From assembly GCA_041742595.1 (NCBI GenBank), contig JBGSIJ010000003.1, positions 107,409-171,408 on the forward strand: 64,000 nucleotides of DNA. Direction: 5' to 3'. Made by a program: the position numbers and the translations under genes. This DNA comes from Fimbriimonadaceae bacterium (GTDB taxonomy: Bacteria; Armatimonadota; Fimbriimonadia; Fimbriimonadales; Fimbriimonadaceae). This document shows positions 12,445-43,159 of the stretch, in pieces; position 1 is the first letter of the stretch, and every line of letters starts with the position of its first letter. The notes under the pieces were generated by a model that had not been told where the DNA came from, ran no database searches, and saw only the letters and a list, made by a program, of their open reading frames with translations.

Positions 12445-12645
12445 CGGGCGGGCTTCAGGTAAGGCGGCCAGGGTGCCGATTGTCTGGAGTTTTAGGGACG
12501 AACCAAAAAAGGTCCTGTATGCGAGGCTAGGGATGAGGCGAAATCGCGACGATTGGGGCGCGCTCCGTCGTCTACTCACCCCTCACCTGCAGGCTTCCGG
12601 GGGCAGAATGAATTTGAAGAGGTTATACAAGGAGGACTCGTCACA

Positions 12646-14610
12646 GTGAGGCGATTCATCACATCGTTAACCGGGAAGATCGTGGGTCAGGTAGTTATCC
12701 TGGCGCTGTTACTTCCCTCGCTCACCCTTACGCTCGCTGGTCGAGCGGAGGCTCAGCAACTTGCGATGCCAACATGGGCAGTCGTTGAGTTCGAGAACAT
12801 GAAGCCGGGTGGGGGGAACCTGGGCGCGATCGCCGCGGAGGCCGTTGCTTCGGAGCTGGCAAAGCTCGGCAAGTACGACGTCGTTCCGCAAGAGAACGTC
12901 AAGCGAAAGCTGGACGATCTTGGCCTTCAGAGCCCGGTAACGAGCGAGGTCAGCCTTCTCCGGTTGGCACAGGAGCTCCGCGCTTCGACCATCGTGACCG
13001 GCCAGGTAGTGAACTACCGTGTCACCAACGTCGGCGGCGGCAAGCAGGCCGACGTTTTGATGCGCATCGTCGTTCGCGACGTCGCATCCGGCCTTGCGGT
13101 GAACGGCTCCGCTCTCTCGGCCTCGTCGACGGTTCGAACCGGCGACGTTGCAGACAGCACCGTCATCCAGGAAGCATTCCAGACCGCCGCCAACCGCGCC
13201 GTCAACGACGTTCAGTCGAAGACGCTTCCGTCGGCTACGGTTCTGAACACGCTGACCACCACCGCCCTCATCAACCAGGGCGCTCGCTCCGGCTTCGAGG
13301 TCGGAATGAATCTCGTCGTCCTTCGTGGACGTGAGCAGGTGGCCACGGCCAAGGTCTACAACGTGGAGCCTGACTCTGCGAACATCCGAGTTGAGCGATC
13401 CTACAAGGGTCTTCAGCCCGGAGACAAGGTCCGCGCGATCTTCACGCCTCCCACCATCAGCCCCGACTTTGCCAAGGGCGGTGGCGTCAACATTCAGAAG
13501 CCTCGCAAGTCTGGCAACAACGCCGGCGCGATCTCCACGATCCTCGTGGTTGGCCTTGTGCTTCTCCTCGCAGGCGGCATCGGCGGCGGCGGTGGCGGCA
13601 GCAGTGCCGGTACCTCGGCGCGGGTTGCCCGTGCCGAAGCCTTCGTTGACAATGCCGGCCGACCGGCCGTTCGGATCAGCTGGGCTACCGACGGCTTCGC
13701 CAAGGGTAGCTACAACCGCGTTGCATGGCAAGTCTGGCGCAGCGAGTGGCTGGACAGCCCGGTCCTCGTGGTTCCTGGCAACTCCACTTCGGCTATCGAC
13801 AACTCGCTGGCCCGCAACGTTTCGTACAGCGACTTCGGCCGCGTGAACGGATCGACCTGCGACTTCAGCGATGCGAACCTGACGGATGCGGCAGCAGTGC
13901 CGGGCGTCACGGCGGGACGATCTCTTCGCTACCAGGTCGAGTTGGTCTACAAGATCAATGCTCTCGACCTTCCGGGCGCTGGTGGCACGAGTGGCACCGG
14001 CGGCACGGGTGGTACCGGCGGCACTAGCGGCACCGGTGGCACGGGTGGAACTGGCGGTACGGGTGGTACCGGCGGAACCGGTGGCACGGGCGGTACGGGT
14101 GGTACTGGCGGGACCGGTGGCACGGCGGGCGACGGCGGAGACTGCTTCTTCGTCTCCGGTCGAAAGACGACTGACGGCTTCGCGACTCCGGTCGTCCGCT
14201 CTCAGCTCATCTCGCCGGCGCAGAACGCTTCGGTGGCCAGCCCGACCAATGCCGGCGGCGGACAGGTTCTTAACCAGAAGGTTACGTTCACGTTCTCCTC
14301 GGTGGTCACGCTCGACACGCTCCTGGCCGAGTACATCGTTCAGGTGTCCTCCAGCTCGGACTTCGCCAAGTCGCGAACCCGAACGGTTGGCGCTAAGCTC
14401 GTGAGCTCTTCTCAGGGACAGCTTTCGATCACGGCGGACAACGACTTCTACACGGCGGCCAAGGCGGTCGTCTGGTGGCGAGTCGGCGCACGCGTCATGG
14501 ACGACAAGCCCGGCCCCTCGCCGGATAAGGCGTCTGGACTGCGCTACGTGTTCAGCTCTCCCAACCGCTTCACGAGGCCGGACGCTCCTCCGCCCCCTCC
14601 TGCTCCCTAG
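12646..14610 (+). CDS. Secreted mosaic envelope protein: signal peptide, CsgG/LpoB/TolB-N-like domain, beta-sandwich domain, central TM-like segment, Fn3-like domain, (Gly-Thr-Gly)n linker, Fn3-like domain, Pro-rich tail
   Basis: A GTG start lies 7 nt after AAGGAGGA. The signal peptide is …LTLAGRAEA|QQ. The CsgG-like pattern is VVEFENMKPGG…ELAKLGKYDVVPQENVKRKLDDLGL…IVTGQV. The hydrophobic segment is ISTILVVGLVLLLAGGIGGGGGGS. A GTGGT-type repeat is encoded by a 9-bp tandem DNA repeat. Confidence 0.7.
   Translation: MRRFITSLTGKIVGQVVILALLLPSLTLTLAGRAEAQQLAMPTWAVVEFENMKPGGGNLGAIAAEAVASELAKLGKYDVVPQENVKRKLDDLGLQSPVTSEVSLLRLAQELRASTIVTGQVVNYRVTNVGGGKQADVLMRIVVRDVASGLAVNGSALSASSTVRTGDVADSTVIQEAFQTAANRAVNDVQSKTLPSATVLNTLTTTALINQGARSGFEVGMNLVVLRGREQVATAKVYNVEPDSANIRVERSYKGLQPGDKVRAIFTPPTISPDFAKGGGVNIQKPRKSGNNAGAISTILVVGLVLLLAGGIGGGGGGSSAGTSARVARAEAFVDNAGRPAVRISWATDGFAKGSYNRVAWQVWRSEWLDSPVLVVPGNSTSAIDNSLARNVSYSDFGRVNGSTCDFSDANLTDAAAVPGVTAGRSLRYQVELVYKINALDLPGAGGTSGTGGTGGTGGTSGTGGTGGTGGTGGTGGTGGTGGTGGTGGTGGTAGDGGDCFFVSGRKTTDGFATPVVRSQLISPAQNASVASPTNAGGGQVLNQKVTFTFSSVVTLDTLLAEYIVQVSSSSDFAKSRTRTVGAKLVSSSQGQLSITADNDFYTAAKAVVWWRVGARVMDDKPGPSPDKASGLRYVFSSPNRFTRPDAPPPPPAP
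13981..14130 (+). repeat. In-frame 9-bp tandem repeat (GGYGGCACN-like, ~16 units) encoding (G-T-G/S)n
   Basis: Imperfect tandem units are directly visible: ggtggcacg / ggtggtacc / ggcggcact / agcggcacc …. Confidence 0.8.
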
Positions 14611-14681
14611 GGAGCGTTGAACCTTCGCCTGCCTACGGAACGTCTTTCCGTAGGCAGGTTTCTTCGGACTGAGGACAAGGA

Positions 14682-17177
14682 ATGAACCGTCTGACTAGAA
14701 TTACATCAACCATGATTGCGGCCGGAGTGGCCGTGACCGGGGCATATGCCCAGGCAGACTTCGGGGTCTTCTGCTTTGACCCAGACCCGAACTTTAACCC
14801 GTTTAGCAACCCCTTCGGGATCAACGGGCAATTCAACGATCTATTCGAATTCACCATCGGTGGCGTTGGGACCGTTGGTTGGGATGGCCAGGCCGGTCGT
14901 TGCTTCAACCCGGACATCACGCTCGACGTCCCTGGGCGCATTGGATTCGCCGTTGGGCCGGTTGGCTCGACCCAGTCTGACTTCGACCAAGGAATGGCCC
15001 TGACCATGGGCTTCCCCTACCAGGGAGGCAACTGGTCGACCGCGGTGATTACCCGTGGTGGCCAGCAAGTTAGCTACTACGGAAAGGCGGGCATGCAGCT
15101 CTTCTTTGATGGCGCTAGCGACCGCTATGTGCTTGCCGATGCTAGCCCGAGCGACGATATCACGGTCAAGTGCCGACTCGATCTGGTCGGAGACGCGACG
15201 CGCGTCAGCTACCGCCTGATCAACAACCAAACGACGGCCGCTAACCTGGGGCTGTGGTTTGGCCAGTGGGTAGAGCTTCTTACGCGGAACTATCAGTCCG
15301 CTGGCGCGTTCGGCAAGACGCCCTACATCATGATGCCGGGACGCAAGCCCTTCCTCATCGAGCAGGAGGTTTCGCGAACCGTCGACGCGGCGAACTACCC
15401 GTCTTTCGTCAATTTCAACTTCAGCCAGACCAACGCCTATGGCCTCCAGGTCATTCTCGGTCCGAGTGAGACGACCTACGACGAGACTGGACAGAGCGAT
15501 GCGACGCAGTCCGACGAGTTCAAGTTCGGCGAGGGCACCTTCAATCTCGGCGGCATCGGCGCCAACCCGCCCTTTGCCGACAGCGATCCGATCGACATCA
15601 CGGTAGGTCGCCCGTCGTACATCGTCAAGTATCCGGAGCAGTCGGTTCCGGCCGGCGGATCCCGAACGATCGTCCAGTACTTCAAGTCCACTTGGAGCTT
15701 CGCGAACTACGCCAAGCCCTACGCGGTAGTCGTAGACGCCCCGCGCTTGCTGGCGCAGAGCGCGGCAGGCGTAAACGGCCTCACGCCCAACCCCTTCACG
15801 ATCCGGGTTTACGTCGACAACATTCGCGGCTACACCACCGTGAACGAGGAAGTGACGCTGAACGAAGTCAAGGTCAACCTGAACCTGCCTCAGGCCACCG
15901 GCCTCAAGCTGGCCACTGGTCAGTCCGCCACTCGGATCATCGATCGAATCGCGCCCCGCCAGATTCGGTTCGTAGACTTCGTTGTCGTTGCCAATGGCAA
16001 GACCTACGGTTCTCAGGGCTTCACCGTGAAGGTGACCCCCAACCCCGGTCCGGTGAAGACGGTTAAAGGCTCGATCATGATCGCAGCCACGCCCAAGCTC
16101 TTCCTGAAGCCCAAGGCCAACCTGGTTTCGATCCCGTTCAAGGTCAACAACACCAGCCTCTCGTCGGTGCTCGGCCTCAAGAGCCCAACCGAGTTCCAGG
16201 CCTTTGCCTACAGCCCGCAGCAGCGCGGCTACATCCTGCAGACCAACGTCCAGCGGGGTAAGGGCTACTGGGTCGTCTACAACAAGACGACTAACGCGGA
16301 GATCGACCTTCAGGGAAGCCCGACGACCCCGACGGATACGTCCACCGGCGCGCCGAACATCGTTCTGAAGTCCGGCTGGAACCTGATCGGCAATCCCTAC
16401 AACTACGTGTTCCCGCTTGGCCAACTGGTTGGCGTCAGCGGCTCCGCCCCCGGCGAAGCTCTGACCTGGGCGGAACTCGTGCAGCAGGGAATCGTGGGAC
16501 CGGCGCTCGCATACTGGGACAACTCGTTGCTCCCGGCCCGGGCCGCCGTCTACAAGTACCTGGAAGGCACGGAATCGCCCTTGGCGCCTAACACGGGCTA
16601 CTGGCTCTACGTGAACACTTCCGAGGATCTGACCCTTGCGTTCCCGCCCGTCTACCAGGAGTTCCTGCCTGGTTCGAGTCGGAGCCCCGAGAAGTTCACC
16701 GCAAAGGGACCCACCGTCCTCGCCTCCGCGCCTAAGCCCACCTATAGCGTTCAGATGATCGCAACGGCGGGAAGCGTTTCGGCTGGACAGTCGTCCTCCG
16801 TGGATGATCAGAACTTCTTTGGCCAGGCTTCTCATGCAGCCAAGCTCACGCTCCTTCAGCGGCCCAAGCCGCCAAAGGCCCCGGTTCAGTCCCTCAACGC
16901 CTACTTCAAGGAAGAGTCGCGAGGACAGAACCTGGCGATGAGCCGATACTACAAGCTGAACGGCAACACGACGTTCGACTTCGTAGTCGAGTCCGAGAGC
17001 AACGGTCTGGTGGTTCTCACCTGGCCCAACCTCGCCACGGCCCTCAAGACGGTGAAGTTCACCATCCGAGACCTGGCGACGGGTGTGACGCGAGACATGC
17101 GCGCTACGGACCGATTCGGTTACACGGCGAGCAAAGGCAAGCCGAGCACCTTCCGCATCACGGCCACCTGGCCCTAG
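14682..17177 (+). CDS. Large secreted hypothetical protein (831 aa)
   Basis: The signal peptide is MNRLTRITSTMIAAGVAVTGAYAQA. It is co-oriented 71 nt after the previous gene and is rich in Thr/Asn/Gly beta-strand-like sequence. No domain is recognised with confidence. Confidence 0.65.
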   Translation: MNRLTRITSTMIAAGVAVTGAYAQADFGVFCFDPDPNFNPFSNPFGINGQFNDLFEFTIGGVGTVGWDGQAGRCFNPDITLDVPGRIGFAVGPVGSTQSDFDQGMALTMGFPYQGGNWSTAVITRGGQQVSYYGKAGMQLFFDGASDRYVLADASPSDDITVKCRLDLVGDATRVSYRLINNQTTAANLGLWFGQWVELLTRNYQSAGAFGKTPYIMMPGRKPFLIEQEVSRTVDAANYPSFVNFNFSQTNAYGLQVILGPSETTYDETGQSDATQSDEFKFGEGTFNLGGIGANPPFADSDPIDITVGRPSYIVKYPEQSVPAGGSRTIVQYFKSTWSFANYAKPYAVVVDAPRLLAQSAAGVNGLTPNPFTIRVYVDNIRGYTTVNEEVTLNEVKVNLNLPQATGLKLATGQSATRIIDRIAPRQIRFVDFVVVANGKTYGSQGFTVKVTPNPGPVKTVKGSIMIAATPKLFLKPKANLVSIPFKVNNTSLSSVLGLKSPTEFQAFAYSPQQRGYILQTNVQRGKGYWVVYNKTTNAEIDLQGSPTTPTDTSTGAPNIVLKSGWNLIGNPYNYVFPLGQLVGVSGSAPGEALTWAELVQQGIVGPALAYWDNSLLPARAAVYKYLEGTESPLAPNTGYWLYVNTSEDLTLAFPPVYQEFLPGSSRSPEKFTAKGPTVLASAPKPTYSVQMIATAGSVSAGQSSSVDDQNFFGQASHAAKLTLLQRPKPPKAPVQSLNAYFKEESRGQNLAMSRYYKLNGNTTFDFVVESESNGLVVLTWPNLATALKTVKFTIRDLATGVTRDMRATDRFGYTASKGKPSTFRITATWP

Positions 17178-17229
17178 TGACTCCAAAGCTGCCGGACGCG
17201 AGTGATCGACGTCCGGCAGCTTCTTCCCT

Positions 17230-19233
17230 ATGAAGCGCTGGATCCTACTGCCCCTCGTTGTAGTCGCCGCCGTAGCGGCCTATGCGAGCCGGGCCTCGGT
17301 TCGGCTAGAGATCTTCCCGACCGTTAGCGTGGCCGATGCCCGCAGCACGGTTACCGTAACCGCCGAGATTCGCGACGCCAACGGCAAACGCGTTCCGAAC
17401 GGCACCCAGGTGATCTTCAACACCACCCTCGGCCAGTTCCGAGAAACCGTGGTGACCACCGAAAACGGATTTGCCCGAGGAATTCTCAAAGCAGGCGGTA
17501 TTCCGGGCAGCGCCAAGGTCACGGTCACCGTTCCTGCCTTTAGTACCGTCGGAACCACGGACTTCGAGTTCTTAAGCGATCGAAGCCTCCTGGCTAGCGC
17601 CAAGGAATACATCGAGATCGTCGCGCCGAGCGACCTTCGGTTCAGTCTGGACAACAACCTTCTTGGGGCGTCCGGCCCAGGCAAAACGGTCAAGCTTCGA
17701 TACCGAGAGGTTGAGATCGAGGCCGACGACATCCAGCTTGACATTTCGGCGTACACGGTTCGAGCGCGAAAGGCCACCCTACATATCAACAAGAAGGATT
17801 ACGAGTTTGGCGAGCTGTCCTTCCGGCTCAACACGCGCAAGGGGTTTGGTACCGCAGTTGTCCCAGCCGACGTGATCTCCAGCATCGAACTCGCTGGCTT
17901 CATGCCGATGATCCGCACGGAGAAGCGAGATCGCCTCTCGCTGGTTCAGGTGACCTCGAGCGGGATCACGGCCGCGACCGAGCCATTTCCGGCGGAAGGG
18001 TTCCTTTTCATGGATCCCTCCGAGAGCATTACCCAGATTTCCGCCAAGAAGGCCATCGTATTCCCCCGCAAGCTGATCCAGTTTCAGAAGGCGGAAGTCT
18101 ACGTTGGCCCCACGCGAGTCATGCAGATTCCGCTCTACCAGGTGAACCTGAACGGCAACAGCCAGATGTTCACGGAGCAGATCGTAAATGTGGCGGACAA
18201 CCAGCTCTCCGTCAACTATCCCTACTATCTCAGCATGCGACCCGGCGAAACCAGCCTGCTGCGCTTCCGTCTCGGCGGAAACGCGGGGCGAGGCTTCTCG
18301 GCGACCGGCGGCGCCTTCGTGGACTACGAACTTCGGTGGAACCGGGGCGACGAGTTCGACGGTGGCCTCACGTTCTCCGGTATCGGGCGAAACGACTGGA
18401 ACCTAGGCTTGCGCCAAAGCATTCAGATCGATCCTCACACCAATGCGTTCGCCCAGCTAGACATGCCGGCGGGCCGCTACCTCTATGGCAACGGCAGCAT
18501 TAGTCGCCAGTTCACGGGATTCCAGGTCAACCTGTCTGGGAACGCAAGTCGATCGCTCCGAGGGCTGAACTACGAAGACCAGCGCCTCTCGCTCAGCCTC
18601 GATACCGACGGCAGCAAGATCCGCAATCTGCCCGTGACGATGTACTACGGGATCGGGCTAACCAGCAACAAGACCCGCTACGATCTCCAGAACCGCCAGG
18701 ACGTAACCCGCAACTACCGGGACCTGGCGCTCACAACTCGGGCTCAACTCAACTCGATTACGATCGACTCCGACACCAACCTGAACGCCTCCATCAGCAC
18801 CAACGTGCGCCCCCATCGAAAGGACCGGGCGGTGGGCCTGTTGGGAAGTGTGACGGTCGCCCGACAACTGGGAACGGGCGCGAACCTGAATCTCACCTAC
18901 GACTACGTAGACGACCTCTTCGATGGCGGATTCCTCGGACGCCACCGTCTCAGCTTCCAGGGATTTCTCGGCAGCGGTCGAACCTCGTTCTCCATCTTTG
19001 GCACCAAGAGCCTCGATGCCGATCGGCTCAGCCTAAACGGCGACTTCAGTTACCAAGTCAGCGGGTTGTGGCGACTAAGCAGCATCTACACCTTCGACAA
19101 GTTCCTCGGGGACACGGTGCTGGACTACGGCCTCGGCATCGCTTACCGCCTGGGCTGGCGCGAAGTGGGCCTGACGTGGTCGAAGCGTACCGGCCGATTG
19201 GGAATCCAGGTCCTTGGTACGAGCTTTAACTAG
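17230..19233 (+). CDS. Putative outer-membrane protein with an N-terminal bacterial Ig-like (Big_1) domain and a C-terminal beta-barrel-like region
   Basis: The signal peptide is MKRWILLPLVVVAAVAAYA. The Big-like segment is TVTVTAEIRDANGKRVPNGTQVIFNTTLGQF…AKVTVTV. The C-terminal half has alternating hydrophobic residues, Gly/Asn/Ser-rich turns and an aromatic-rich C-terminus (…LGTSFN). Confidence 0.6.
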   Translation: MKRWILLPLVVVAAVAAYASRASVRLEIFPTVSVADARSTVTVTAEIRDANGKRVPNGTQVIFNTTLGQFRETVVTTENGFARGILKAGGIPGSAKVTVTVPAFSTVGTTDFEFLSDRSLLASAKEYIEIVAPSDLRFSLDNNLLGASGPGKTVKLRYREVEIEADDIQLDISAYTVRARKATLHINKKDYEFGELSFRLNTRKGFGTAVVPADVISSIELAGFMPMIRTEKRDRLSLVQVTSSGITAATEPFPAEGFLFMDPSESITQISAKKAIVFPRKLIQFQKAEVYVGPTRVMQIPLYQVNLNGNSQMFTEQIVNVADNQLSVNYPYYLSMRPGETSLLRFRLGGNAGRGFSATGGAFVDYELRWNRGDEFDGGLTFSGIGRNDWNLGLRQSIQIDPHTNAFAQLDMPAGRYLYGNGSISRQFTGFQVNLSGNASRSLRGLNYEDQRLSLSLDTDGSKIRNLPVTMYYGIGLTSNKTRYDLQNRQDVTRNYRDLALTTRAQLNSITIDSDTNLNASISTNVRPHRKDRAVGLLGSVTVARQLGTGANLNLTYDYVDDLFDGGFLGRHRLSFQGFLGSGRTSFSIFGTKSLDADRLSLNGDFSYQVSGLWRLSSIYTFDKFLGDTVLDYGLGIAYRLGWREVGLTWSKRTGRLGIQVLGTSFN

Positions 19234-21016
19234 CCTTCTCGTCGTGGCGGCTGCCACGGCGAGCATGGCTCAGGCCTTTGGCCGCTTCGGCTACTCGCCG
19301 TTTCCCGCCGTGCCAGGCTGGACCTTGGACGCCGAGGGAATCCGTGCCAATTTCCCCAGCGCAGACAAGCTGACCTTCCCCATGGCCCTCAAGAAGTGGC
19401 AGCCCGTGGAGACCTCTGACCTTAGGCAAGTGTCCCTCACCGGCGGCGGCGCAGGTTCGCCTTCAAAAGTCCGTGCTAGCCTGCTGAGCTTTGGAGTATC
19501 GATGTACTTTGAAGCGGGCGTTGCGTTGGGCCTCACCTCCACGGCCAGCCCCTACCTAAGTTGGGCCGAGGGCACGGTCGAGGACGGTGTCCCCACCCCC
19601 AACGCCAAATGGGTCTTGGTCTCGTTCCGAGACCGGCAACCGCCGATCCTCTTGGTCTTTGGCGGAGAGGCGCCGGGATTGGTGATCCAGGGCAAGCCTG
19701 GGGCATGGACCCTGAAAACGCCGGGCGTCTACAAGGGCTGGGTCCGCTTTTGCCTCCCCCGCGGCACCGAGGCTGCCGAGGCGAACTCTGCCGCGGGCCT
19801 TGGCAAACTGGTCAAGGCGGTAGAGGCAAATGAGGATCTTTGGGTGCGCGGGGATCCTGAAGTGACCAAGACCACCGTTCAGGAGGAATGGACGGCGGTG
19901 ACGGGCGACTTCCTGTACTCCGCAGCCGGCGTGCCGGTGCCGTCCCCGGTCGACTTGGCCCCTCTCGGGGGATACCCGGTCAAGGCCCTGACTAAGATCC
20001 GAAAGCTAGACTTCACTCTGGACGGTCAGTCGGTGTTTGTTACCGCCGAGCGATCGCTCAAGATTCGGTTTCCCGTAAAGCGAGTGCCCACGGGCCGTGG
20101 CCTTGCCGTGGGCAAACGCGCCCAAGAGCCCCTTGGCACCGTGTCCTCGCTAGACTTGCCGAGCGTGGCAGAACTTGCCCTGGAGAACCTCCTGGGCACC
20201 CGCGACCGCCGACTCCGTGAGACGGGCGAGCGGGCGATGGCAGAATTCGTCCAAGCCGCTTCCTCCTCACGCGAGCCCTGGACCAAGCAGACCATGCTGT
20301 ACGGGGAGGACGGAGCCGGGATCGATCTGGCCGCCTCCCACGCGCTCCTGATGCAGGCGCTCGCCGCAATCAACCAGGCTTCGAGCGAAGCCAACTCGCT
20401 CCTCACCTCGATCACGTGGCGTCGAGACTGGCTGAGTTGGCGTCTCTGGGGAGTCGATGCCGTCAAGGCGCGTCGCGCCGCGGCGCTGGCCAGCCTTGCC
20501 GGAGCGCTATGCCCGGAACCCGAACGAAGGCTGGAGGCGGCGATCCTCCAGGCTGGCCTTGCCGCCGAGCGGGGAGCGGCCATCCGCCGTGCCCGAGCAA
20601 CCCAAACCGAAGCCCCCGTCTTTCTGGAACCCATGGACGCCCTTCGCCAGAGCCTGTTTGGCTCCGTGATCCCGCCCGCCGCTGAGGATCCCTTTCTCAA
20701 GGTTCTTCTCAGTGAGATTCGCGCTTACGGCGACGCCGCTCTTGAACTGGCTTCTACTGAGGAGCGGGTCTACGTGGCCGCCTGGGAGGCCAAGGACACC
20801 TTGGCCGCAACGCTGACGCTTGCGGCGGGCTACCCAATCCAGGTGGAAAACCTGAACCTCGACAAGTTCGAGGTCGCCCAAGGCCTTGGGTTCACCAAAA
20901 TGACCGTGCGCCCCAAGGCGCCCGGGCGGTGCGAGATTAGGATTCGTATACCGGCCTGGGCCAAACTCCTCCCCGTATTCGTCGAGCCCTCCGCTTATTC
21001 AGAAACGTCGCGCTGA
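19214..21016 (+). CDS. Secreted hypothetical protein (600 aa)
   Basis: The start is a TTG that overlaps the previous gene's end by ~20 nt. The signal peptide is (M)VRALTSLLVVAAATASMAQA. The 3' end overlaps convergent nadB by 22 nt. Confidence 0.5.
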   Translation: MVRALTSLLVVAAATASMAQAFGRFGYSPFPAVPGWTLDAEGIRANFPSADKLTFPMALKKWQPVETSDLRQVSLTGGGAGSPSKVRASLLSFGVSMYFEAGVALGLTSTASPYLSWAEGTVEDGVPTPNAKWVLVSFRDRQPPILLVFGGEAPGLVIQGKPGAWTLKTPGVYKGWVRFCLPRGTEAAEANSAAGLGKLVKAVEANEDLWVRGDPEVTKTTVQEEWTAVTGDFLYSAAGVPVPSPVDLAPLGGYPVKALTKIRKLDFTLDGQSVFVTAERSLKIRFPVKRVPTGRGLAVGKRAQEPLGTVSSLDLPSVAELALENLLGTRDRRLRETGERAMAEFVQAASSSREPWTKQTMLYGEDGAGIDLAASHALLMQALAAINQASSEANSLLTSITWRRDWLSWRLWGVDAVKARRAAALASLAGALCPEPERRLEAAILQAGLAAERGAAIRRARATQTEAPVFLEPMDALRQSLFGSVIPPAAEDPFLKVLLSEIRAYGDAALELASTEERVYVAAWEAKDTLAATLTLAAGYPIQVENLNLDKFEVAQGLGFTKMTVRPKAPGRCEIRIRIPAWAKLLPVFVEPSAYSETSR

Positions 21017-36700: not shown

Positions 36701-37249
36701 GTCCAAGATCCCACCTCGGCGGCTGAACTGCCCGGGCAGCCGAACCGGCTCCTGGTGCTCGTAACCGAGCCGGCCGAGCCTCCTCTGGAGCCCTTCGACG
36801 TCCACCACATCCCCCTTACGGAGCAAGAGAAAGGCGTCGTTTAGAACATCCGTCGGCAGAGTCCGCTCGAGGGCGGCTTGAGGCGTTGCCAGGATAATCG
36901 CGGGCTCTGGACTGGCAAGGACCCGAAGGGCGCCAAGGCGATCGGAAAGGGCGATGTGCTCGGGCGCCGCGTCCTCGAACAAAGCGGAAGAGCCGCTGGG
37001 AAGGATGTGGATGTCGCCGTGGCGCACGCCGCAGATCTCGAGCTTGGCCTGCCACTGGAGGGCTCGATCGTAGTTCGCCGCCACGATGAGGGTCTTTCTG
37101 GGACTCTGGAGGTGCCGAGCGGCGAGCAACACCGGGCGCGCCTCGGGACATACCGTCTGCCATTCGGCGGACTGTTGCTCCAAGGAGGCGAACGCTTCTT
37201 TCAGTGATGGGAGCGCGCCGATTCTGCGCGTCCAAGCCAAGAGGCTCAT
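33719..37249 (-). CDS. mfd: Transcription-repair coupling factor
   Basis: The protein is 1176 aa with UvrB-homology, RNAP-interaction (CarD-like), DEAD/DEAH helicase (GDVGFGKTEV; DEEQKFG) and TRCF C-domains. Confidence 0.9.
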   Translation of the reverse strand: MSLLAWTRRIGALPSLKEAFASLEQQSAEWQTVCPEARPVLLAARHLQSPRKTLIVAANYDRALQWQAKLEICGVRHGDIHILPSGSSALFEDAAPEHIALSDRLGALRVLASPEPAIILATPQAALERTLPTDVLNDAFLLLRKGDVVDVEGLQRRLGRLGYEHQEPVRLPGQFSRRGGILDIYASGRDLPVRIEFFGDEIESLRMFDPNSQRSVGQIESLAMAPSRETLYVEGHEGLAELVTSSMEREAAMLAPEASARLEELVAGDADALGAKVYFDRLDLYRPMLHPDSGCAIDLLGEDGLLVLDEPLELESIAARSEEELGQALAARRERGEILHSTANDFMLPPEHFADHSRIVSLSAMNALPDWLRLPVQLDLQAVSLDPYRGRSEALTLTLRNWTKEGVSCVFATDQPNRAKSVLEAAEIFPFDSMPTEGESGGQFLAHGNLGGGFILQGEKLAVVTDGELFGVARLKLPQRRFMEGAPIATVLDLKPGDYVVHIHFGIGVFRGLVKRIEQGVEKEFLYIEYQAPDKLFVPADQLDRIQKYLNPGDEHPKLNKLTGGEWQRTLGKAKEEAKEFARDLVKLYAARKKVVRPRYSPDTPWQAEMEATFPWVETPSQATAIQEAKKDMELEWPMDRLVCGDVGFGKTEVAIRAAFKAVQDKRQVAVLCPTTILSEQHYRNFAERLGGFGVQLGLINRYVTGPDKRDVEKRLGNGEIDIVLGTHALLGSSIEFKDLGMVIIDEEQKFGVKQKELLKKLRTEVDVLTLSATPIPRTLSMALMDIRQMSLINDPPPGRLPIRTFLRPYSKEVIREAILRELARGGQVFYVYNRVESIEHVAESLRKLIPTARIGVGHGQMHEKELEPIMIGFIKGEIDILLSTTIIENGIDISNANTLIVENADRLGLSQLYQLRGRVGRSDRQAYAYFLYASGKDLTESGMARLQALQEFSTLGSGYSLAFRDLQIRGAGELLGARQHGAMANVGYELYTQLINEAVAMLKNSVDGQSTGDVKDPLESLTPLPQFEVPVVALLPEGYIKDQAQRLYYYQKMMSCRTEGSLAAVQGEIEDRYGHPPEQVHNAFAIMGQRIHARDLGMSKVDARQGRLSITFSDREAVPPRVISLVAKKNRECYLAQGQFIWPYTGNPILGIEKLLMTFDEAFRQLEAEREKLGL

Positions 37250-37658
37250 GAAGCAACGAGGGTACCCCGAGCCTCAATGACCAGAATCTGCTTCCGAACG
37301 GGACGTTCCACCATCTCTAAAGAGTTCATTTACAAAGATAAATATAGGGCCAAAGACCCAATAAAGTCATGAGACCAATCGATAGGCGCGCCGAAGACCC
37401 CCAATGACAGGGGCCAACGAGGCGGAGTTGTCGCTTTTGCAGAGAAATCAAGCAATTCCGGCATGAACGCTTGGCATTTCAGGAATGTCGGCTTACCATT
37501 GCGCCATGACTTCTCGATCGCAATGGACCCCCGCAACTACCTCTTGAGAGGAGGTAGTTACTCCATGTGAGTACGTATTTATATAAGGTATTGGGATTGG
37601 TTGAGGAACGTCGTACACTTCACTACTCTTGACCCCATCGCGTTAAGGGCAGTGACTT

Positions 37659-38516
37659 ATGAAGAAAGCATTTACGCTCATCGAGCTCCTCGTCGTGATC
37701 GCGATCATCGCGATTCTTGCGGCGATTCTTTTCCCCGTCTTCGCCCAGGCTAAGGCTGCCGCCAAGAAGACCGCTTCGCTCAGCAACGTCAAGCAGAACA
37801 TGCTTGGCCTTCTGATGTACAACGGCGACAACGACGATCTGTTCGCTCCGGTTGTCTCCTGGAGCGGCCCGGCGCCCGCCTTCTTCGGCGGCACCCCCTA
37901 CCAGCCGTGGTCTTGGCTTGTGCTCCCCTACATGAAGAGCACGGACATCCTGCAGGACCCCCAGGCTCCTTCCATGGAAGCTTGGCCGGCCGTTTGGAAC
38001 GTCAACACCACCAAGGCGTTGGCTCCCCAGTACGGTCTCAACTACCAGGGCCTGAGCCCGGTCACTGCGGGAACGGACACTGCGTTCCAGATCACCCCGG
38101 TCAGCAGCACCTCCGTCGAGAGCCCGTCCGAGACGGTCGCCCTCGCGGCTAAGTTCTCCACTTCGGAGGACGCCCTCGGCGCTTCTGGCACCTACTGGGC
38201 CGGCGCTGGCTCCTGGACCACGGTCGTGACGGTTGAAGGCCCCGAGTGCTTCACCATCGTTCCCTACTGCTTCGTCAACTGGGGCGTTGGTTCCTGGTAC
38301 GACACCGACTACCTGAACCAGAACAAGGCTGCCGGCGCCAAGACGGGCGGCGTTTCGCTGCGCAACGCGGACCGCTCGATCGTCTCCTGGGTTGACGGCC
38401 ATGCTTCCGCGAACTCCGCCGGACAGCTTGCGAAGGGAACGAACTTCACGTTCGACACCGCCGAAGCTTCCGTCGTCTTCACGGACGAAACCCTGTACCT
38501 CTGGGACTCTAAGTAA
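37659..38516 (+). CDS. Prepilin-type N-terminal cleavage/methylation-domain protein of the DUF1559 (H-X9-DG) family, copy 1
   Basis: The N-terminus MKKAFTLIELLVVIAIIAILAAILFPVF is a class III signal with a type IV pilin-like helix. The C-terminus is RNADRSIVSWVDGH. Confidence 0.8.
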   Translation: MKKAFTLIELLVVIAIIAILAAILFPVFAQAKAAAKKTASLSNVKQNMLGLLMYNGDNDDLFAPVVSWSGPAPAFFGGTPYQPWSWLVLPYMKSTDILQDPQAPSMEAWPAVWNVNTTKALAPQYGLNYQGLSPVTAGTDTAFQITPVSSTSVESPSETVALAAKFSTSEDALGASGTYWAGAGSWTTVVTVEGPECFTIVPYCFVNWGVGSWYDTDYLNQNKAAGAKTGGVSLRNADRSIVSWVDGHASANSAGQLAKGTNFTFDTAEASVVFTDETLYLWDSK

Positions 38517-38737
38517 TGAAGTCCCTGCTCGGCGCCATCGCTACGATCGCGATTGCCGCAGCCCTTATGGGTTGCGGCTCCGAGCCGGTGGCCAAGGAAG
38601 ATCCGGAAGCGGCCGCGAAGCCTAAGGTTTCGAAGGGTGGCAACGCGGATCTCGCCCAGCAGGCTCCGGAAATGACTCCTCCGCCCAACGCACCGACCGC
38701 CGACCAGGTAGTTGGTTCAAAGGGTGGCGGAAACTAG
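38516..38737 (+). CDS. Small lipoprotein (73 aa) translationally coupled to DUF1559 copy 1
   Basis: An ATGA stop/start overlap joins it to the upstream gene. The signal plus lipobox is …AALMGC|GS. The conserved C-terminal motif is APEMTPPPNAPTADQVVGSKGGGN. Confidence 0.65.
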   Translation: MKSLLGAIATIAIAAALMGCGSEPVAKEDPEAAAKPKVSKGGNADLAQQAPEMTPPPNAPTADQVVGSKGGGN

Positions 38738-38759
38738 CCGGAACCACTGAACATCTCGC

Positions 38760-38793
38760 GATCCCTTCCGTCGCTTCATAGCCGGAAGGGATC
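38760..38793 (+). other. Intergenic stem-loop between the two DUF1559-lipoprotein modules (possible terminator/attenuator, no U-tract)
   Basis: An 11-bp perfect inverted repeat GATCCCTTCCG/CGGAAGGGATC surrounds a 12-nt loop. Confidence 0.35.
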
Positions 38794-38883
38794 CGGGAAC
38801 CAACTTTCCCAGGATCGGGCACCTTACTGCAGGTTAGATTGCGGTGAGCGGCTTAATTTTTCCTGAACAAATCACGAAATCCC

Positions 38884-38910
38884 TTGCAAGGGAACAGAGG
38901 CCGCTATACA
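38884..38910 (+). promoter_or_regulatory. Weak candidate promoter TTGCAA-N15-TATACA upstream of DUF1559 copy 2
   Basis: Hexamers are visible but the spacer is short (15 nt), so this is speculative. Confidence 0.25.
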
Positions 38911-38951
38911 ATGGTCACTGTCTTTGGGGCGTTTGCCCCGGGTGATTTTTC

Positions 38952-39800
38952 ATGAAGAAAGCTTTTACGCTCATTGAACTCCTAGTAGTCATCGCCATCA
39001 TCGCGATCCTCGCCGCCATCCTCTTCCCGGTTTTCGCCCAGGCGAAGGCTGCTGCGAAGAAGACCTCCTCGCTCAGCAACGTCAAGCAGGAGATGCTTGG
39101 CCTCCTCATGTACGCAGGCGACAACGACGACGTGTTCGCGCCGGTCGTTTCCTGGAGCGACCCTGCTCCGGCATACCTCGGCGGCGGCCCTTACCAGCCG
39201 TGGTCCTGGCTCATCCTCCCCTACATGAAGAACACGGACATCATGCAGGACCCGCAGGCTCCGGCCATGCAGGCTTGGCCGGCCGTTTGGAACGTCAACA
39301 CCACCAAGGCGTTGGCCCCCCAGTACGGTCTCAACTACGTCGGTCTTAGCCCGGTCACCGGTTCGCCGTTCGTCATCACGCCGAACAGCTCCACCTCGAT
39401 CGCCGCTCCGGCCGAGACGGTTGCCATCGCAGCCAAGTTCTCCACCTCCGAGGACAGCCTCGGCGCGACCGGCACCTACTGGGCTGGCGCTGGCTCCTGG
39501 ACCACGACCCAGACGGTCGAAGGCCCCGAGTGCTGGACCATTCCTGAGTGGTGCTTCGTCAACTGGGGCGTCGGTTCCTGGTACGACACCAGCTACCTCC
39601 TTGGCAACAAGGCTGCTGGCGCCAAGACCGGCGGCGTCTCGCTCCGCAACGCCGATCGCTCGATCGTTGCTTGGGTCGATGGCCACGCCACCGCCAACTC
39701 CGCTGGCCAGCTCGCCAAGGGTACGAACTTCACGTTCACGACCAACGAGCCGGACGTGGTGTTCACGGACGAGACCGTATACCTCTGGGACAAGAAGTAG
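38952..39800 (+). CDS. Prepilin-type N-terminal cleavage/methylation-domain protein of the DUF1559 family, copy 2 (paralog of 37659-38516)
   Basis: The first ~45 residues are almost identical to copy 1. Similarity is high throughout and the C-terminus is RNADRSIVAWVDGH. Confidence 0.8.
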   Translation: MKKAFTLIELLVVIAIIAILAAILFPVFAQAKAAAKKTSSLSNVKQEMLGLLMYAGDNDDVFAPVVSWSDPAPAYLGGGPYQPWSWLILPYMKNTDIMQDPQAPAMQAWPAVWNVNTTKALAPQYGLNYVGLSPVTGSPFVITPNSSTSIAAPAETVAIAAKFSTSEDSLGATGTYWAGAGSWTTTQTVEGPECWTIPEWCFVNWGVGSWYDTSYLLGNKAAGAKTGGVSLRNADRSIVAWVDGHATANSAGQLAKGTNFTFTTNEPDVVFTDETVYLWDKK

Positions 39801-40027
39801 TGAAAAGAAGCCTCCTCTCTGGATTCCTGATGGTCGTCGGAGCTTTGGCTCTGGTGGGATGTTCAACCGAACCGGCAGCGCCTGAGACTCCGGTCGGCCA
39901 GGCTCCCGCACAAACGGCTAAGGGCGGAAACGAGGGATTGGCTAAGGAAGCCCCCGAGATGACCCCTCCTCCCGGTGCACCCACCGCGGACGAGATCGTC
40001 GGATCGAAGGCAAAGGGCGGCAACTAG
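39800..40027 (+). CDS. Small lipoprotein (75 aa) translationally coupled to DUF1559 copy 2 (paralog of 38516-38737)
   Basis: A GTG start overlaps the TAG stop (TAGTG). The lipobox is LVGC|ST and the conserved C-terminal motif is APEMTPPPGAPTADEIVGSKAKGGN. Confidence 0.6.
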   Translation: MKRSLLSGFLMVVGALALVGCSTEPAAPETPVGQAPAQTAKGGNEGLAKEAPEMTPPPGAPTADEIVGSKAKGGN

Positions 40028-40049
40028 CCACTCTCCCGCTACCAAGACC

Positions 40050-40085
40050 GGCCCCTTCGCAGAATTCTGCGGAGGGGCCTTTTTC
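40050..40085 (+). terminator. Rho-independent terminator after the second module
   Basis: A near-perfect 15-bp palindrome GGCCCCTTCGCAGAA/TTCTGCGGAGGGGCC is followed by TTTTT. Confidence 0.65.
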
Positions 40086-40137
40086 TGCGCTGAGATCGAT
40101 GACGCGGTATTCTGCGTAGGTTCCGGTAGTTCCCACC

Positions 40138-41358
40138 ATGTCAAACGCAAACGTTTTCATGCCCTCCACCGAAACGCTCTTCGAGCGGGTCGGCGAGAAC
40201 ACGATGATCGTGAACATGGGGCCTCAACACCCCTCGACCCACGGCGTCCTCCGAGTCATCTGCGAGCTTGAGGGCGAAGTCATCGTCCAGTGCAAGAGCG
40301 TGATCGGCTACCTCCATACCGGAATGGAGAAGGAAGCCGAGTACCAGCAGTATCACAAGTGCGTGGTCATGACCGACCGCATGGACTACCTGAACGCGAA
40401 CGGCAACAACCTTGCCCACGCGCTCGCGGTCGAGAAGCTTCTCGGCGTTGAAGTCCCAAAGCGGGCTCAGTACCTGCGGGTCATTTTGGCGGAGCTCAGC
40501 CGTCTCGCCAGCCACTGCGTGTGGCTCGGTACCCACGGCCTAGACCTGGGGGCGATGACCCCGTTCTTCTACATCATGCAGCAGCGCGAATACATTCTCG
40601 ACATGTTCGAGATGTTCAGCGGCGTGCGCATGATGCCCTCCTGGATCGTTCCCGGCGGACTTCGCGGGGACATGCCGCCGGAGTTTCCGGCCCGCCTGAA
40701 CAAGTTCCTTGCCGAGTTCCCGTCCGAGTTGAAGGTTGTTGAAGACCTCCTCGTGGGCAATCCGATCTGGAAGGAGCGAACCTACGACGTAGGTGTTCTC
40801 ACCGCTAACCAAGCCCTCTCGCTGGGATGTAGCGGCCCCATCGCCCGTGCCAGCGGCGTAGCCATGGACCTGCGGAAGTTGATGCCGTATAGCAGCTACG
40901 AGGACTTCGAGTTCTCGATCCCGGTTGGATCTCGCGGAGACGTCTACGATCGCTTCCTCGTCCGCCTTGCCGAGATGCACGAGAGCTGTAAGATCATTCG
41001 CCAGGCTATCGATAACCTGCCGGACGGCGATTGGACCACCCCAGACCGGAAGATTTCGCCTCCGCCGCGCGCCGAGCTTGACAACTCCATGGAGTCGCTC
41101 ATCCACCACTTCAAGCTGTTCACCGAGGGCTATCGCCCGCCGGTGGGAGAGGCGTACGGAGCCGTGGAAGGCTCCAAGGGCGAACTCGGGTTCTACGTGA
41201 TCTCGGACGGCAGCAACCGGCCCTACCGCTGGCACGAGCGACCGTCGAGCTTCATGAACCTCAAGTCGCTGGAGGTCCTTGCGATCGGACGCCTTCTCTC
41301 TGACGTCATCGCAATCATTGGTTCGATCGACATCGTCCTCGGCGAAATCGACCGGTAG
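40138..41358 (+). CDS. nuoD: NADH-quinone oxidoreductase subunit D (49-kDa subunit), encoded away from any nuo operon in this window
   Basis: There is strong end-to-end similarity to Nqo4/NuoD motifs (MNMGPQHPSTHGVLR; RMDYL; LAVEKLLG; GVRMMPSWIVPGGLR; GDVYDR; ELGFYV). Confidence 0.85.
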   Translation: MSNANVFMPSTETLFERVGENTMIVNMGPQHPSTHGVLRVICELEGEVIVQCKSVIGYLHTGMEKEAEYQQYHKCVVMTDRMDYLNANGNNLAHALAVEKLLGVEVPKRAQYLRVILAELSRLASHCVWLGTHGLDLGAMTPFFYIMQQREYILDMFEMFSGVRMMPSWIVPGGLRGDMPPEFPARLNKFLAEFPSELKVVEDLLVGNPIWKERTYDVGVLTANQALSLGCSGPIARASGVAMDLRKLMPYSSYEDFEFSIPVGSRGDVYDRFLVRLAEMHESCKIIRQAIDNLPDGDWTTPDRKISPPPRAELDNSMESLIHHFKLFTEGYRPPVGEAYGAVEGSKGELGFYVISDGSNRPYRWHERPSSFMNLKSLEVLAIGRLLSDVIAIIGSIDIVLGEIDR

Positions 41359-41416: not shown

Positions 41417-41471
41417 AGCAAGAGTTGCTTGAAGACAAGGGCTCAAGCCCTTGCAGTGGAGGAGATCGATC

Positions 41472-42437
41472 ATGCTCAGTCGCACGAACATTGCGTCGCT
41501 ACTACTCTTGGCCATTCCCGCGCTGGTGGGTGCTCAGAATTTCGGAATAAAGACGGATGCCCAAGCCTACTATCAAGGAAACAATGGGGGCTTGCAGAGC
41601 CACCAGGTAAAATTCCCAGCTCCAACGTTGCCCGCGGTTTCCGAATCTCGGAGCTATGTTCCGGTCGGTGGCGCAACGAGCTTCGGGCGCGCGGACCGCA
41701 TTTCGGCGTATGACGACGCTGATGCATGGGTCAAGATCACTCATCCTGGCATTGAACAGTCCTACGCACGCGTAGGTGGTCCGACTCCACAGGGAGGATC
41801 GCCGAATGGCGTGTTCGCTAGTACTTTTGCCGAATCCTACACGAAGTGGATGGCGGTGGGCCCCGAGAACCAGATGGTTTCGGTGGACTTGGCCTACTTC
41901 CTAGACGGCTGGCTGTTCGCCGCCAAGGCCGCTGGAACGAACGCGAGTCTCGGCTCACAAGTAAACGTAGTCATGCGCATTGACTTGGGCAATGGGGCGG
42001 GCCTCGAGGAGATCTTCTTTGCCCGAGGAGCTTTGTGGCAGTCAACAGGGCTCAGCCCCTTCTTCCGGACCAAGAACGGATGGTCGGACTCCAAGTGGAA
42101 CTCCTCGTGGACCGATACTACGAGTACCCTCACCTCGCCGGTCGGTAACGACCGCATGTTCGATCTGGACTACGCAGACGTGATTCCTGGCATCTTTCAG
42201 GTCATGTCCAACACGCCGTTTGTGCTGGACTACACCGTGACGGTCAGCGCGTACAACAATGCGGGACTGACCGACGCCTTCGCTACCGCCGACTTTTCGA
42301 ATACGGCTGGCATGGACTTCACGACTACGACGCCAGGGTTCACGATGGAGGAGGTTGGCCTTGTGCCCGAGCCGTCCGCAACGGTTGCCTTGGCCCTGGG
42401 AGTCTGCGGCATGTGTGCACGCCGCCGTCGCAGGTGA
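41472..42437 (+). CDS. PEP-CTERM sorting-domain protein
   Basis: The start is taken at M8 after the GGAGGA RBS (MLSRTNIASLLLLAIPALVGAQN). The C-terminus is VPEPSATVALALGVCGMCARRRRR. Confidence 0.75.
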   Translation: MLSRTNIASLLLLAIPALVGAQNFGIKTDAQAYYQGNNGGLQSHQVKFPAPTLPAVSESRSYVPVGGATSFGRADRISAYDDADAWVKITHPGIEQSYARVGGPTPQGGSPNGVFASTFAESYTKWMAVGPENQMVSVDLAYFLDGWLFAAKAAGTNASLGSQVNVVMRIDLGNGAGLEEIFFARGALWQSTGLSPFFRTKNGWSDSKWNSSWTDTTSTLTSPVGNDRMFDLDYADVIPGIFQVMSNTPFVLDYTVTVSAYNNAGLTDAFATADFSNTAGMDFTTTTPGFTMEEVGLVPEPSATVALALGVCGMCARRRRR

Positions 42438-42596: not shown

Positions 42597-43159
42597 ATGA
42601 GAATCCTTGTCCTCTCGTTGTTGGTCGGATTCACCGCTTGCGGTTCCGCAACAACCCTCTCCTTTGCCGGCACGGTCGACGATGGCTTCGAGGCTTACAT
42701 CAGTACCGACGACTCCGTGCCCGGCACCCTCATCGCATCGAGCGACTGGTGGCAGACCACCCAGTACGCCAACGTTGCGCTGGCGCCAAACGCCGTTCAC
42801 TACTTGCACATCGTCGGTAGGGACCTCTATGGCGGCCCCAGATGGCGATCGCTTCGCTCTCGCTCAGCGACTCGCTGTTCGAGTTCGCCAACGGGACCCA
42901 GGCTCTCAACACCGATGTTGACCACTGGAAGGCGAGCCTGACCGGATTCGGCCTCGACTACGTGGCCCCTGACGACCTTGGCCCCAATGGGGGCATGGTC
43001 TGGGGGATGGTCAACGGCGTCGACCCTGCCGCACGCCATATCTGGACTGGAGGCTCCGCGGGGGAGCACTACTTCTCTACCGAAATCCGGCCGGTTCCCG
43101 AGCCAACCTCCTTGGCCGCCCTCGCTCTCTGCCTCGCCGCGATGCGCCGCCGACGCTGA
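42597..43159 (+). pseudogene. PEP-CTERM protein gene interrupted by a frameshift near a C-run (~42828-42845)
   Basis: The 5' ORF (42597-42941) carries a signal peptide. A 3' ORF in another frame (42842-43159) ends in VPEPTSLAALALCLAAMRRRR. They overlap at GGCGGCCCCAGATGG. Confidence 0.5.

Follow-up and report, generated by a model that had tools for sequence, protein, structure and literature searches.

The outer-membrane lipoprotein LpoB reaches its inner-membrane partner, PBP1B, by means of a disordered linker, and the pilotins (PulS/GspS and PilF/PilW/Tgl), small lipoproteins dedicated to type IV filaments or to the type II secretion system (T2SS), are folded proteins that bind the secretin, not the pilin. 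In Pseudomonas aeruginosa, the small genes for TfpY, TfpZ, TfpX, TfpW, and TfpO lie immediately 3' of pilA and are tied to the pilin lineage; TfpY has been proposed to interact with pilins, promoting assembly without entering the fibre, and TfpY-like proteins are said to be conserved in structure (PMC11841053). In Armatimonadota, Planctomycetota, and Verrucomicrobiota, few paralogous families are as large as those of the prepilin-type proteins related to DUF1559, whose function is little characterised. Here we describe a gene pair of comparable layout in a 64-kb stretch of DNA from a Fimbriimonadaceae bacterium (contig JBGSIJ010000003.1; the whole stretch is called the window below). The list of open reading frames (ORFs) and the sequence place two head-to-tail copies of the unit at 37659-40027, each joining a gene for a prepilin-type pilin-fold protein (A1 and A2; family A) to a gene for a mini-lipoprotein (B1 and B2; family B). 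A1 and A2 are the sole prepilin-type genes in the window. We put the probability that A-B is a real, conserved two-gene module at about 0.9. An earlier interpretation made from the letters alone (the sequence-only reading) had proposed a two-gene module duplicated in tandem, its stop and start codons overlapping, and both pairs are there as described; of the two junctions it named, ATGA and TAGTG, the second is right (a 1-nucleotide (nt) overlap of stop and start between A2 and B2), and the first is actually TAATG, in which the TAA stop of A1 and the ATG start of B1 share one A.

Conservation and specificity of the pairing

The evidence for the module comes from a small sample of 14 distinct loci, mostly metagenomic fragments of one bacterial family, which were gathered in two ways, with B as the seed and with A only as the seed. 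With B, a word-index search returned three proteins, one of them new (P0123); a hidden Markov model (HMM) search of 1.84 billion representatives returned five matches, of which P0123 to P0126 are credible; a metagenome scan gave loci L088 and L089; and a search with a 13-sequence B profile gave eight matches, adding P0129 and P0133. One candidate, P0127 (151 amino acids (aa), E = 7e-4), was rejected as a B homologue because it matches in the signal peptide only. In every contig inspected (all but that of P0129), the B-seeded homologue lies directly 3' of an A-family gene. The seven A-only seeds (P0005, P0020, P0026, P0047, P0058, P0105, and P0083; 47-70% identity) are each followed by a 70-85 aa ORF with a lipobox. 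The small lipoprotein gene thus behaves as the dedicated, conserved neighbour that the sequence-only reading had suspected: all 14 A-subfamily loci, with A identity down to about 47%, pair A with a 65-85 aa lipoprotein gene that starts between -16 and +18 nt from the A stop. The junctions are -1 nt (five loci), -4 nt (three loci), -16, +1, +2, +10, and +18 nt, and in the partial locus L086 A and B overlap by 4 nt. B diverges faster than sequence searches can follow; its distant members were picked up through position only.

The pairing was compared with a control set of at least 80 generic prepilin loci from Planctomycetota-Verrucomicrobiota (PVC) and Armatimonadota and, in addition, with the remaining ORFs of all the loci. 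The control loci had been matched through the universal N-terminal peptides ILFPVFAQ and FTLIELLV, not through the A subfamily. A partnership general to DUF1559 proteins, as first supposed, is not what these controls show: among the roughly 93 generic prepilin ORFs listed, just three have a small downstream lipoprotein, and those lipoproteins are larger (124-130 aa) and unrelated to B. Such a follower was absent from all 18 prepilin ORFs in the Armatimonadota and unassigned control loci, and locus L096 holds a second prepilin gene, of another subfamily, that has no lipoprotein partner. The difference between 7/7 A-seeded loci and 3/~90 generic prepilin ORFs is large (Fisher p ~1e-8), and therefore the association is, as far as these sequences indicate, a property of the A subfamily and not of DUF1559 proteins generally.

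The same controls bear on whether the B ORFs might be chance ORFs in GC-rich DNA 3' of A. B is short and of low complexity, its GC content at third codon positions (GC3) is below that of the neighbouring genes, it has no family annotation, and its homologues are called 'hypothetical protein' throughout. Against these features stand the position of the lipobox, the length, and the frame relation to A, which are the same in all 14 loci, the retention of the motif residues though B1 and B2 are unlike at 26 of 40 identical-residue codons, and the occurrence of a follower of this type after just one of 442 other ORFs of at least 200 aa. On the control rates, the motif divergence described below, and the codon differences, we rejected this reading, which is almost certainly wrong.

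Two further kinds of prepilin-lipoprotein pair were seen in these loci. In L084 (2510-3633) and L093 (6549-7681), a module that we call A'-B' adjoins the A-B module and nuo genes; A' is a prepilin protein of 313-316 aa (58% identity between the two loci) that resembles A only over the first ~100 residues, and B', which follows it, is an acidic mini-lipoprotein of 59-60 aa without the shared motif. In planctomycetes, genes for true DUF1559 proteins are sometimes followed by a 130-175 aa lipoprotein (L046, 2992-4403; L026, 2956-4452; L053, 2959-4442), at a spacing of -1 nt in L046 and +21 nt in L026. The DUF1559 proteins of L046 and L026 score 188-195 bits; their lipoproteins have sub-threshold matches to CarboxypepD_reg, Big_1, and DUF6795, and the L053 protein has no Pfam match. 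These planctomycete pairs may represent an analogous, non-homologous pairing.

The two proteins

Protein A carries a prepilin cleavage/methylation motif with Glu at +5 (PF07963, 30.4 and 30.5 bits against a cut-off of 21.2; TIGR02532, 31.8 bits against 16.3) and the processing-site sequence KKA/FTLIELLVV (slash at the processing site), and it has the long N-terminal alpha-helix packed on a beta-sheet head that characterises the pilin fold. The family alignment shows an invariant pair of cysteines (Cys197 and Cys204), a GDxDD sequence at the end of the helix, and the pattern R235-X10-D246-G-H248. A resembles solved structures by sequence only across the N-terminal helix of pilins, and a Foldseek comparison with the PDB returned no match. 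Every named homologue of A or B belongs to a metagenome-assembled genome of Fimbriimonadaceae or Fimbriimonas (Armatimonadota).

A had been assigned to the DUF1559/H-X9-DG proteins, and this assignment did not hold. Neither A1 (17.4 bits) nor A2 (21.3 bits) reaches the PF07596 (DUF1559) threshold of 23.3 bits, and the match covers just positions 2-73 of the 268-position profile, whereas true DUF1559 controls match positions 1-267 at 188-195 bits. When A was aligned by hhalign with 15 true DUF1559 members, about 96 N-terminal columns aligned at 99.7% probability, and the rest of the head was left unaligned. The homology is limited to the first ~100 residues, that is, to the helix and a W..ILPY segment. 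A regular-expression search found no H-X9-DG in A1 or A2, which have R-X10-DGH instead, whereas planctomycete DUF1559 controls have H-X9-DG, and TIGR04294 is not among the NCBIfam matches of A at E <= 1. By these comparisons, A does not appear to be a bona fide DUF1559/H-X9-DG protein.

Protein B has the lipoprotein signal that had been read from the sequence. In all 14 homologues a K/R n-region precedes a hydrophobic h-region and a lipobox of the form [LVI][ASTVIM][GAS]C (AALMG/C in B1 and LALVG/C in B2), and residue +2 is G, S, or N across the homologues and never D. The public gene call for B2 (P0122, 65 aa) begins at an internal ATG at 39830 and truncates the signal peptide; the GTG at 39800 fits better as the start, since it brings back the K/R n-region common to all homologues. 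Mature B is 51-67 aa long, with small or polar, disorder-promoting residues making up 84-91% of it (87% in B1). An AlphaFold2 (AF2) model of B1 has a predicted local distance difference test score of 58.7 and a predicted template modelling score of 0.19, consistent with predicted disorder, and the one element of structure that AF2 hints at is a weak helix across ADQVVGSK. B matches no family in Pfam or NCBIfam; its NCBIfam and PDB matches are all sub-threshold and cover only the signal or linker regions of unrelated lipoproteins. A reading of B as the precursor of a ribosomally synthesised and post-translationally modified peptide was set aside, as it had only a weak NCBIfam match (E = 0.032, 15 bits against a cut-off of 40).

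B1 and B2 share the C-terminal motif that had been written as APEMTPPP(N/G)APTAD(Q/E)(V/I)VGSK, and the family form is (A/G)-E-(M/L)-x-P-P-P-x-A-P-x-(A/P)-(D/E)-x-(V/I)-(V/A)-G-S-K. Between B1 and B2, nonsynonymous divergence (dN) is 0.13 in the motif and ~0.6 in the signal peptide and the middle, with synonymous sites saturated, so that purifying selection on B appears to be concentrated in the motif. Because dN is low there despite the saturation of synonymous sites, we take B to be a genuine gene that evolves fast and in which constraint falls on a short linear motif. Closer pairs show this motif clearly (GELQPPPNAPNPDNMMGSKAGGN in L098, for example); it is degraded in L090 and L093 (..AEMTP....D.RVG..). 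The concern that it is a common low-complexity tail is answered by the HMM search, in which the four credible matches among 1.84 billion representatives all adjoin an A gene.

Transcription signals, neighbouring genes, and duplication history

The coordinates of the two units and of the signals around them are collected in Table 1. The clean intrinsic terminator that had been noted after the second pair is present. The sequence of the hairpin after B1 is unique within the window, occurring once per arm, and the hairpin, lying between the units, may act as a partial terminator or stabilise the RNA. The spacer between the units (38738-38951) folds at -87.8 kcal/mol (z = -4.9 against shuffled sequences), and the T-run of its second hairpin, TGATTTTTC, ends exactly at the A2 start codon. 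An Rfam search of 37200-40300 found nothing.

Table 1. Positions in the window of the two A-B units, their motifs and candidate transcription signals, and the adjoining nuoD gene
Feature	Positions	Strand	Details
A1, prepilin-type pilin-fold protein	37659..38516	+	285 aa
B1, mini-lipoprotein	38516..38737	+	73 aa; lipobox LMG/C; 54-aa mature part predicted disordered
A2, paralogue of A1	38952..39800	+	282 aa; same domain matches as A1
B2, mini-lipoprotein	39800..40027	+	75 aa from GTG start; lipobox LVG/C
B1 C-terminal motif	38663..38722	+	APEMTPPPNAPTADQVVGSK; from alignments
B2 C-terminal motif	39950..40009	+	APEMTPPPGAPTADEIVGSK; from alignments
Weak sigma-70-like promoter match 5' of pair 1	37471..37499	+	TTGGCA-17-TACCAT; 9/12 consensus positions; pattern match only
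Hairpin without T-run after B1	38754..38798	+	12-bp perfect; arms GATCCCTTCCG / CGGAAGGGATC
Sigma-70-like promoter match 5' of pair 2	38884..38912	+	TTGCAA-17-TACAAT; 9/12 positions; pattern match only
Terminator-like hairpin and T-run	38923..38951	+	TTTGGGGCGTTTGCCCCGGG then TGATTTTTCA; pattern only
Intrinsic terminator after B2	40050..40085	+	Stem 40050-40079: 13 bp, 10 GC pairs, loop 4; then TTTTT
nuoD (complex I 49-kDa subunit), conserved neighbour outside the unit	40138..41358	+	PF00346, 373.7 bits

The A-B unit adjoins complex I genes in five of the ten loci with enough flank (the window, L082, L084, L086, and L093). The order is [AB][AB]-nuoD in the window, [AB]-nuoD in L086 (207-1321), nuoA-nuoC-[A'B']-[AB]-nuoD in L084 (1195-6439), nuoA-nuoC-[AB]-nuoD-[A'B'] in L093 (2669-6454), and [AB]-nuoA-nuoC in L082 (657-2894). 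The position relative to nuoA-nuoC differs between L082 and L084/L093. This recurrence beside nuo genes could be taken to mean that the module serves respiratory complex I, for example in its assembly or anchoring. We regard a complex I role as very improbable: a GC-rich hairpin with a T-run, a strong intrinsic terminator, lies 3' of B and separates it from nuoD or nuoA in all five nuo-linked loci; a -10-like TAGAAT stands just 5' of nuoD in L084 and L093; L090, L091, L094, L096, and L098 place the pair in other contexts without a nuo neighbour; we know of no role for pilin-fold proteins in complex I; and shared synteny within one family is simpler. Because a terminator follows B and five loci lie in unrelated contexts, we treat the location beside nuo genes as probably a matter of synteny, inherited with a cassette that is insulated, rather than a sign of joint function.

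The conserved -10-like element, TCTCGTAGAAT, is located between the post-B terminator and nuoD (L084, 5098-5218; L093, 5136-5233), and its end is ~11 nt (L084) or 8 nt (L093) short of the nuoD start; in the window, a similar CTGCGTAGGTT lies within 40086-40137. From this arrangement, the leader of the nuoD transcript would seem to be very short. nuoB is absent between nuoA and nuoC in L084 and L093. In the window, nuoD is an orphan, with no nuoA or nuoC in 64 kb, and is directly followed by genes for two PEP-CTERM (exosortase-sorted) proteins at 41451-42437 and 42842-43159. The window is ordinary chromosomal DNA, with HflX, an SPFH protein, and Mfd upstream of the units and NuoD, the two PEP-CTERM proteins, an AI-2E transporter, LutB-like proteins, RpoA, and an ATP synthase subunit downstream. 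At 12553-21016 lie four consecutive large plus-strand ORFs (685, 831, 667, and 600 aa), three of them without a Pfam match at E <= 1e-5 and one with an N-terminal Big_1/invasin D3 domain, which may form a surface-protein cluster.

Between the start codon of A and the stop codon of B, the two units are ~82% identical in DNA; their flanks are unalignable. A1 and A2 are 84-85% identical as proteins, and since the ratio of their nonsynonymous to synonymous divergence is 0.19, both copies are evidently kept by selection. B1 and B2 are 55% identical, and among identical-residue codons a larger share differs in B (26/40, 65%) than in A (72/239, 30%; Fisher p = 5e-5). Synonymous divergence between A1 (37659-38513) and A2 (38952-39797) is a mosaic, ranging from 8% to 52% per 30-codon window. 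In a comparison that included L088, B2 was about as near to the L088 B (67%) as to B1 (61%), and A2 was nearer to A1 (85%) than to the L088 A (77%). The simplest reading of these patterns would be an old duplication followed by gene-conversion patches or by strong codon constraint in A.

Proposed role and comparison with described systems

We propose that each unit (promoter, A, B, and terminator) encodes a two-protein envelope module. The class III (prepilin) signal of A would probably be cut by prepilin peptidase before Phe+1, leaving a ~50-residue hydrophobic/amphipathic helix in the inner membrane and a ~230-aa pilin-fold head with one conserved cysteine pair in the periplasm, and A may assemble into, or prime, a type IV filament or a T2SS-type pseudopilus. 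B would be translated from the A mRNA, and the start/stop overlap should link the expression of the two genes at near 1:1. Once lipidated at Cys+1, B would expose an intrinsically disordered chain of ~50 residues, whose C-terminal motif would dock onto the head of the cognate A, making B a pilin-specific, lipid-anchored tether or chaperone that may hold, localise, or gate A until assembly. B may be anchored to the outer membrane and extend through the periplasm, because residue +2 is never Asp, if the Escherichia coli rule can be extrapolated to Armatimonadota. In favour of this proposal we count the conserved pairing, the selection on A and on the motif of B, the co-variation of A and B identities, the predicted disorder of B, the terminators that insulate the unit, and the genes of a cultured relative, Fimbriimonas ginsengisoli, for PilB/C/D/Q/M/T, the T2SS, and 79 PulG-like proteins (PMC4072686). 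The processing of A, its membrane location, the direct binding of A by B, and the effect on assembly are what we infer. We give about even odds to the proposal of an accessory factor B that uses its C-terminal motif to bind A; a given consequence for assembly is less probable than that.

Several observations weigh against this proposal. At -1 of the prepilin site A1 and A2 have Ala, where Gly is canonical; Ala at this position is common within the A family alignment. None of the 30 scanned window proteins has a pilus or T2SS machinery domain (ATPase, platform, or secretin); pilin genes are often unlinked from assembly machinery, and absence nearby is weak evidence. GC3 is lower in B (0.63-0.68) than in A (0.83-0.85). 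In the distant pairs (L091, L094, and L096), at 47-56% A identity, B keeps its lipobox, length, composition, and position but the motif is essentially gone, so either the interface drifts with A or the function of B is independent of a specific motif. Finally, the co-variation of A and B identities counted above (Mantel r = 0.62, p = 0.001) is also expected from the co-inheritance of neighbours.

The last two points are those that favour an alternative in which A and B are merely co-transcribed and co-inherited neighbours and B is an independent envelope lipoprotein (a filler, a spacer, or a stress protein) that does not bind A: the motif decays in distant pairs as the adjacency stays, and the shared phylogeny of adjacent genes makes the Mantel correlation non-discriminating. 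We nevertheless consider this alternative unlikely, though less so than the other rivals, because the adjacency outlasts the divergence of A to ~47% identity and at least five different genomic contexts, the stop/start overlap is retained in most loci, B is never found away from an A gene in the loci inspected, and the A' subfamily has its own, different mini-lipoprotein.

The roles of the two proteins could also be reversed, with B as a cargo or surface-displayed lipopeptide and A as a dedicated pseudopilin that exports or presents it via a T2SS-type machine. Lipoprotein substrates such as pullulanase are exported by the T2SS, and here a lipoprotein and a pseudopilin-like protein are encoded together, with residue +2 of the lipoprotein never Asp. 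T2SS substrates are normally folded proteins, however, and mature B, at ~54 predicted-disordered residues, offers no enzyme or binding domain. F. ginsengisoli has T2SS genes (PMC4072686). The window proteins that were scanned include no machinery genes near the units, and overall we hold export of B as cargo to be distinctly improbable.

A more general form of the accessory role, which we consider improbable as well, would extend beyond this family: prepilin-type families of PVC bacteria and Armatimonadota would be inner-membrane-anchored periplasmic heads in two-component modules with cognate lipoproteins, and not filament subunits, and a disordered outer-membrane mini-lipoprotein would capture the head by a short linear motif to form a trans-envelope tether. 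If this were true, one principle would have three variants: A-B, A'-B', and the pairing in planctomycetes of DUF1559 with a lipoprotein that is CarboxypepD_reg-like. The present scope is one subfamily in one bacterial family, with its function inferred. For that subfamily, a conserved partner encoded by an overlapping gene gives a concrete experimental handle, and the pair illustrates how position, and not sequence, can reveal short, fast-evolving 'hypothetical' lipoprotein genes. Our literature search returned no description of a lipoprotein partner for these pilin-like proteins, nor of the planctomycete DUF1559-lipoprotein pairs.

Among described proteins, type IV pilins and T2SS pseudopilins (PilA, PilE, and GspG/PulG/EpsG) differ from A in that the A head is about twice as large, its sequence has no similarity to solved pilins beyond the helix, its gene is not clustered with assembly genes, and its residue -1 is Ala. 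The DUF1559 (PF07596, SBP_bac_10)/H-X9-DG (TIGR04294) proteins of Planctomycetota and Verrucomicrobiota are, like A, prepilin-type proteins of ~300 aa in massively expanded families, but A is set apart by R-X10-DGH, a sub-threshold Pfam score, and the non-aligning rest of its head. The planctomycete DUF1559 genes of L046 and L026 resemble A-B in having a lipoprotein gene after a pilin-like gene; those lipoproteins are larger (130-165 aa), probably folded, and unrelated to B, and such followers occur after a minority of the sampled DUF1559 ORFs (L026, L046, and L053). Pilotins, dedicated to a type IV filament or the T2SS, are small lipoproteins as B is, but B has no match to any pilotin family in Pfam, NCBIfam, or PDB sequence searches.

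LpoB, like B as predicted, combines a lipid anchor with a disordered chain of ~50 residues that could span the periplasm. Its folded effector domain is absent from B, which has just a short linear motif, and against the LpoB model (TIGR02722, cut-off 110.55 bits) B1 and B2 score 17.2 and 13.0 bits, in the signal/linker region only. With the TfpY-like proteins, B shares a lineage-specific position immediately 3' of a pilin-like gene (14/14 loci against 3/~93 generic prepilin ORFs). It differs from them, by description and not by direct comparison with TfpY sequences, in that its ~54 mature residues are predicted to be disordered whereas the structure of the TfpY-like proteins is conserved; B also belongs to no Pfam or NCBIfam family, and A is not established as a major pilin. 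The closest working analogues of B are therefore the accessory genes downstream of pilA and the LpoB-type lipoproteins; B is a member of neither family, and the A-B pairing fits the known theme of a pilin gene accompanied by a lineage-specific accessory gene.

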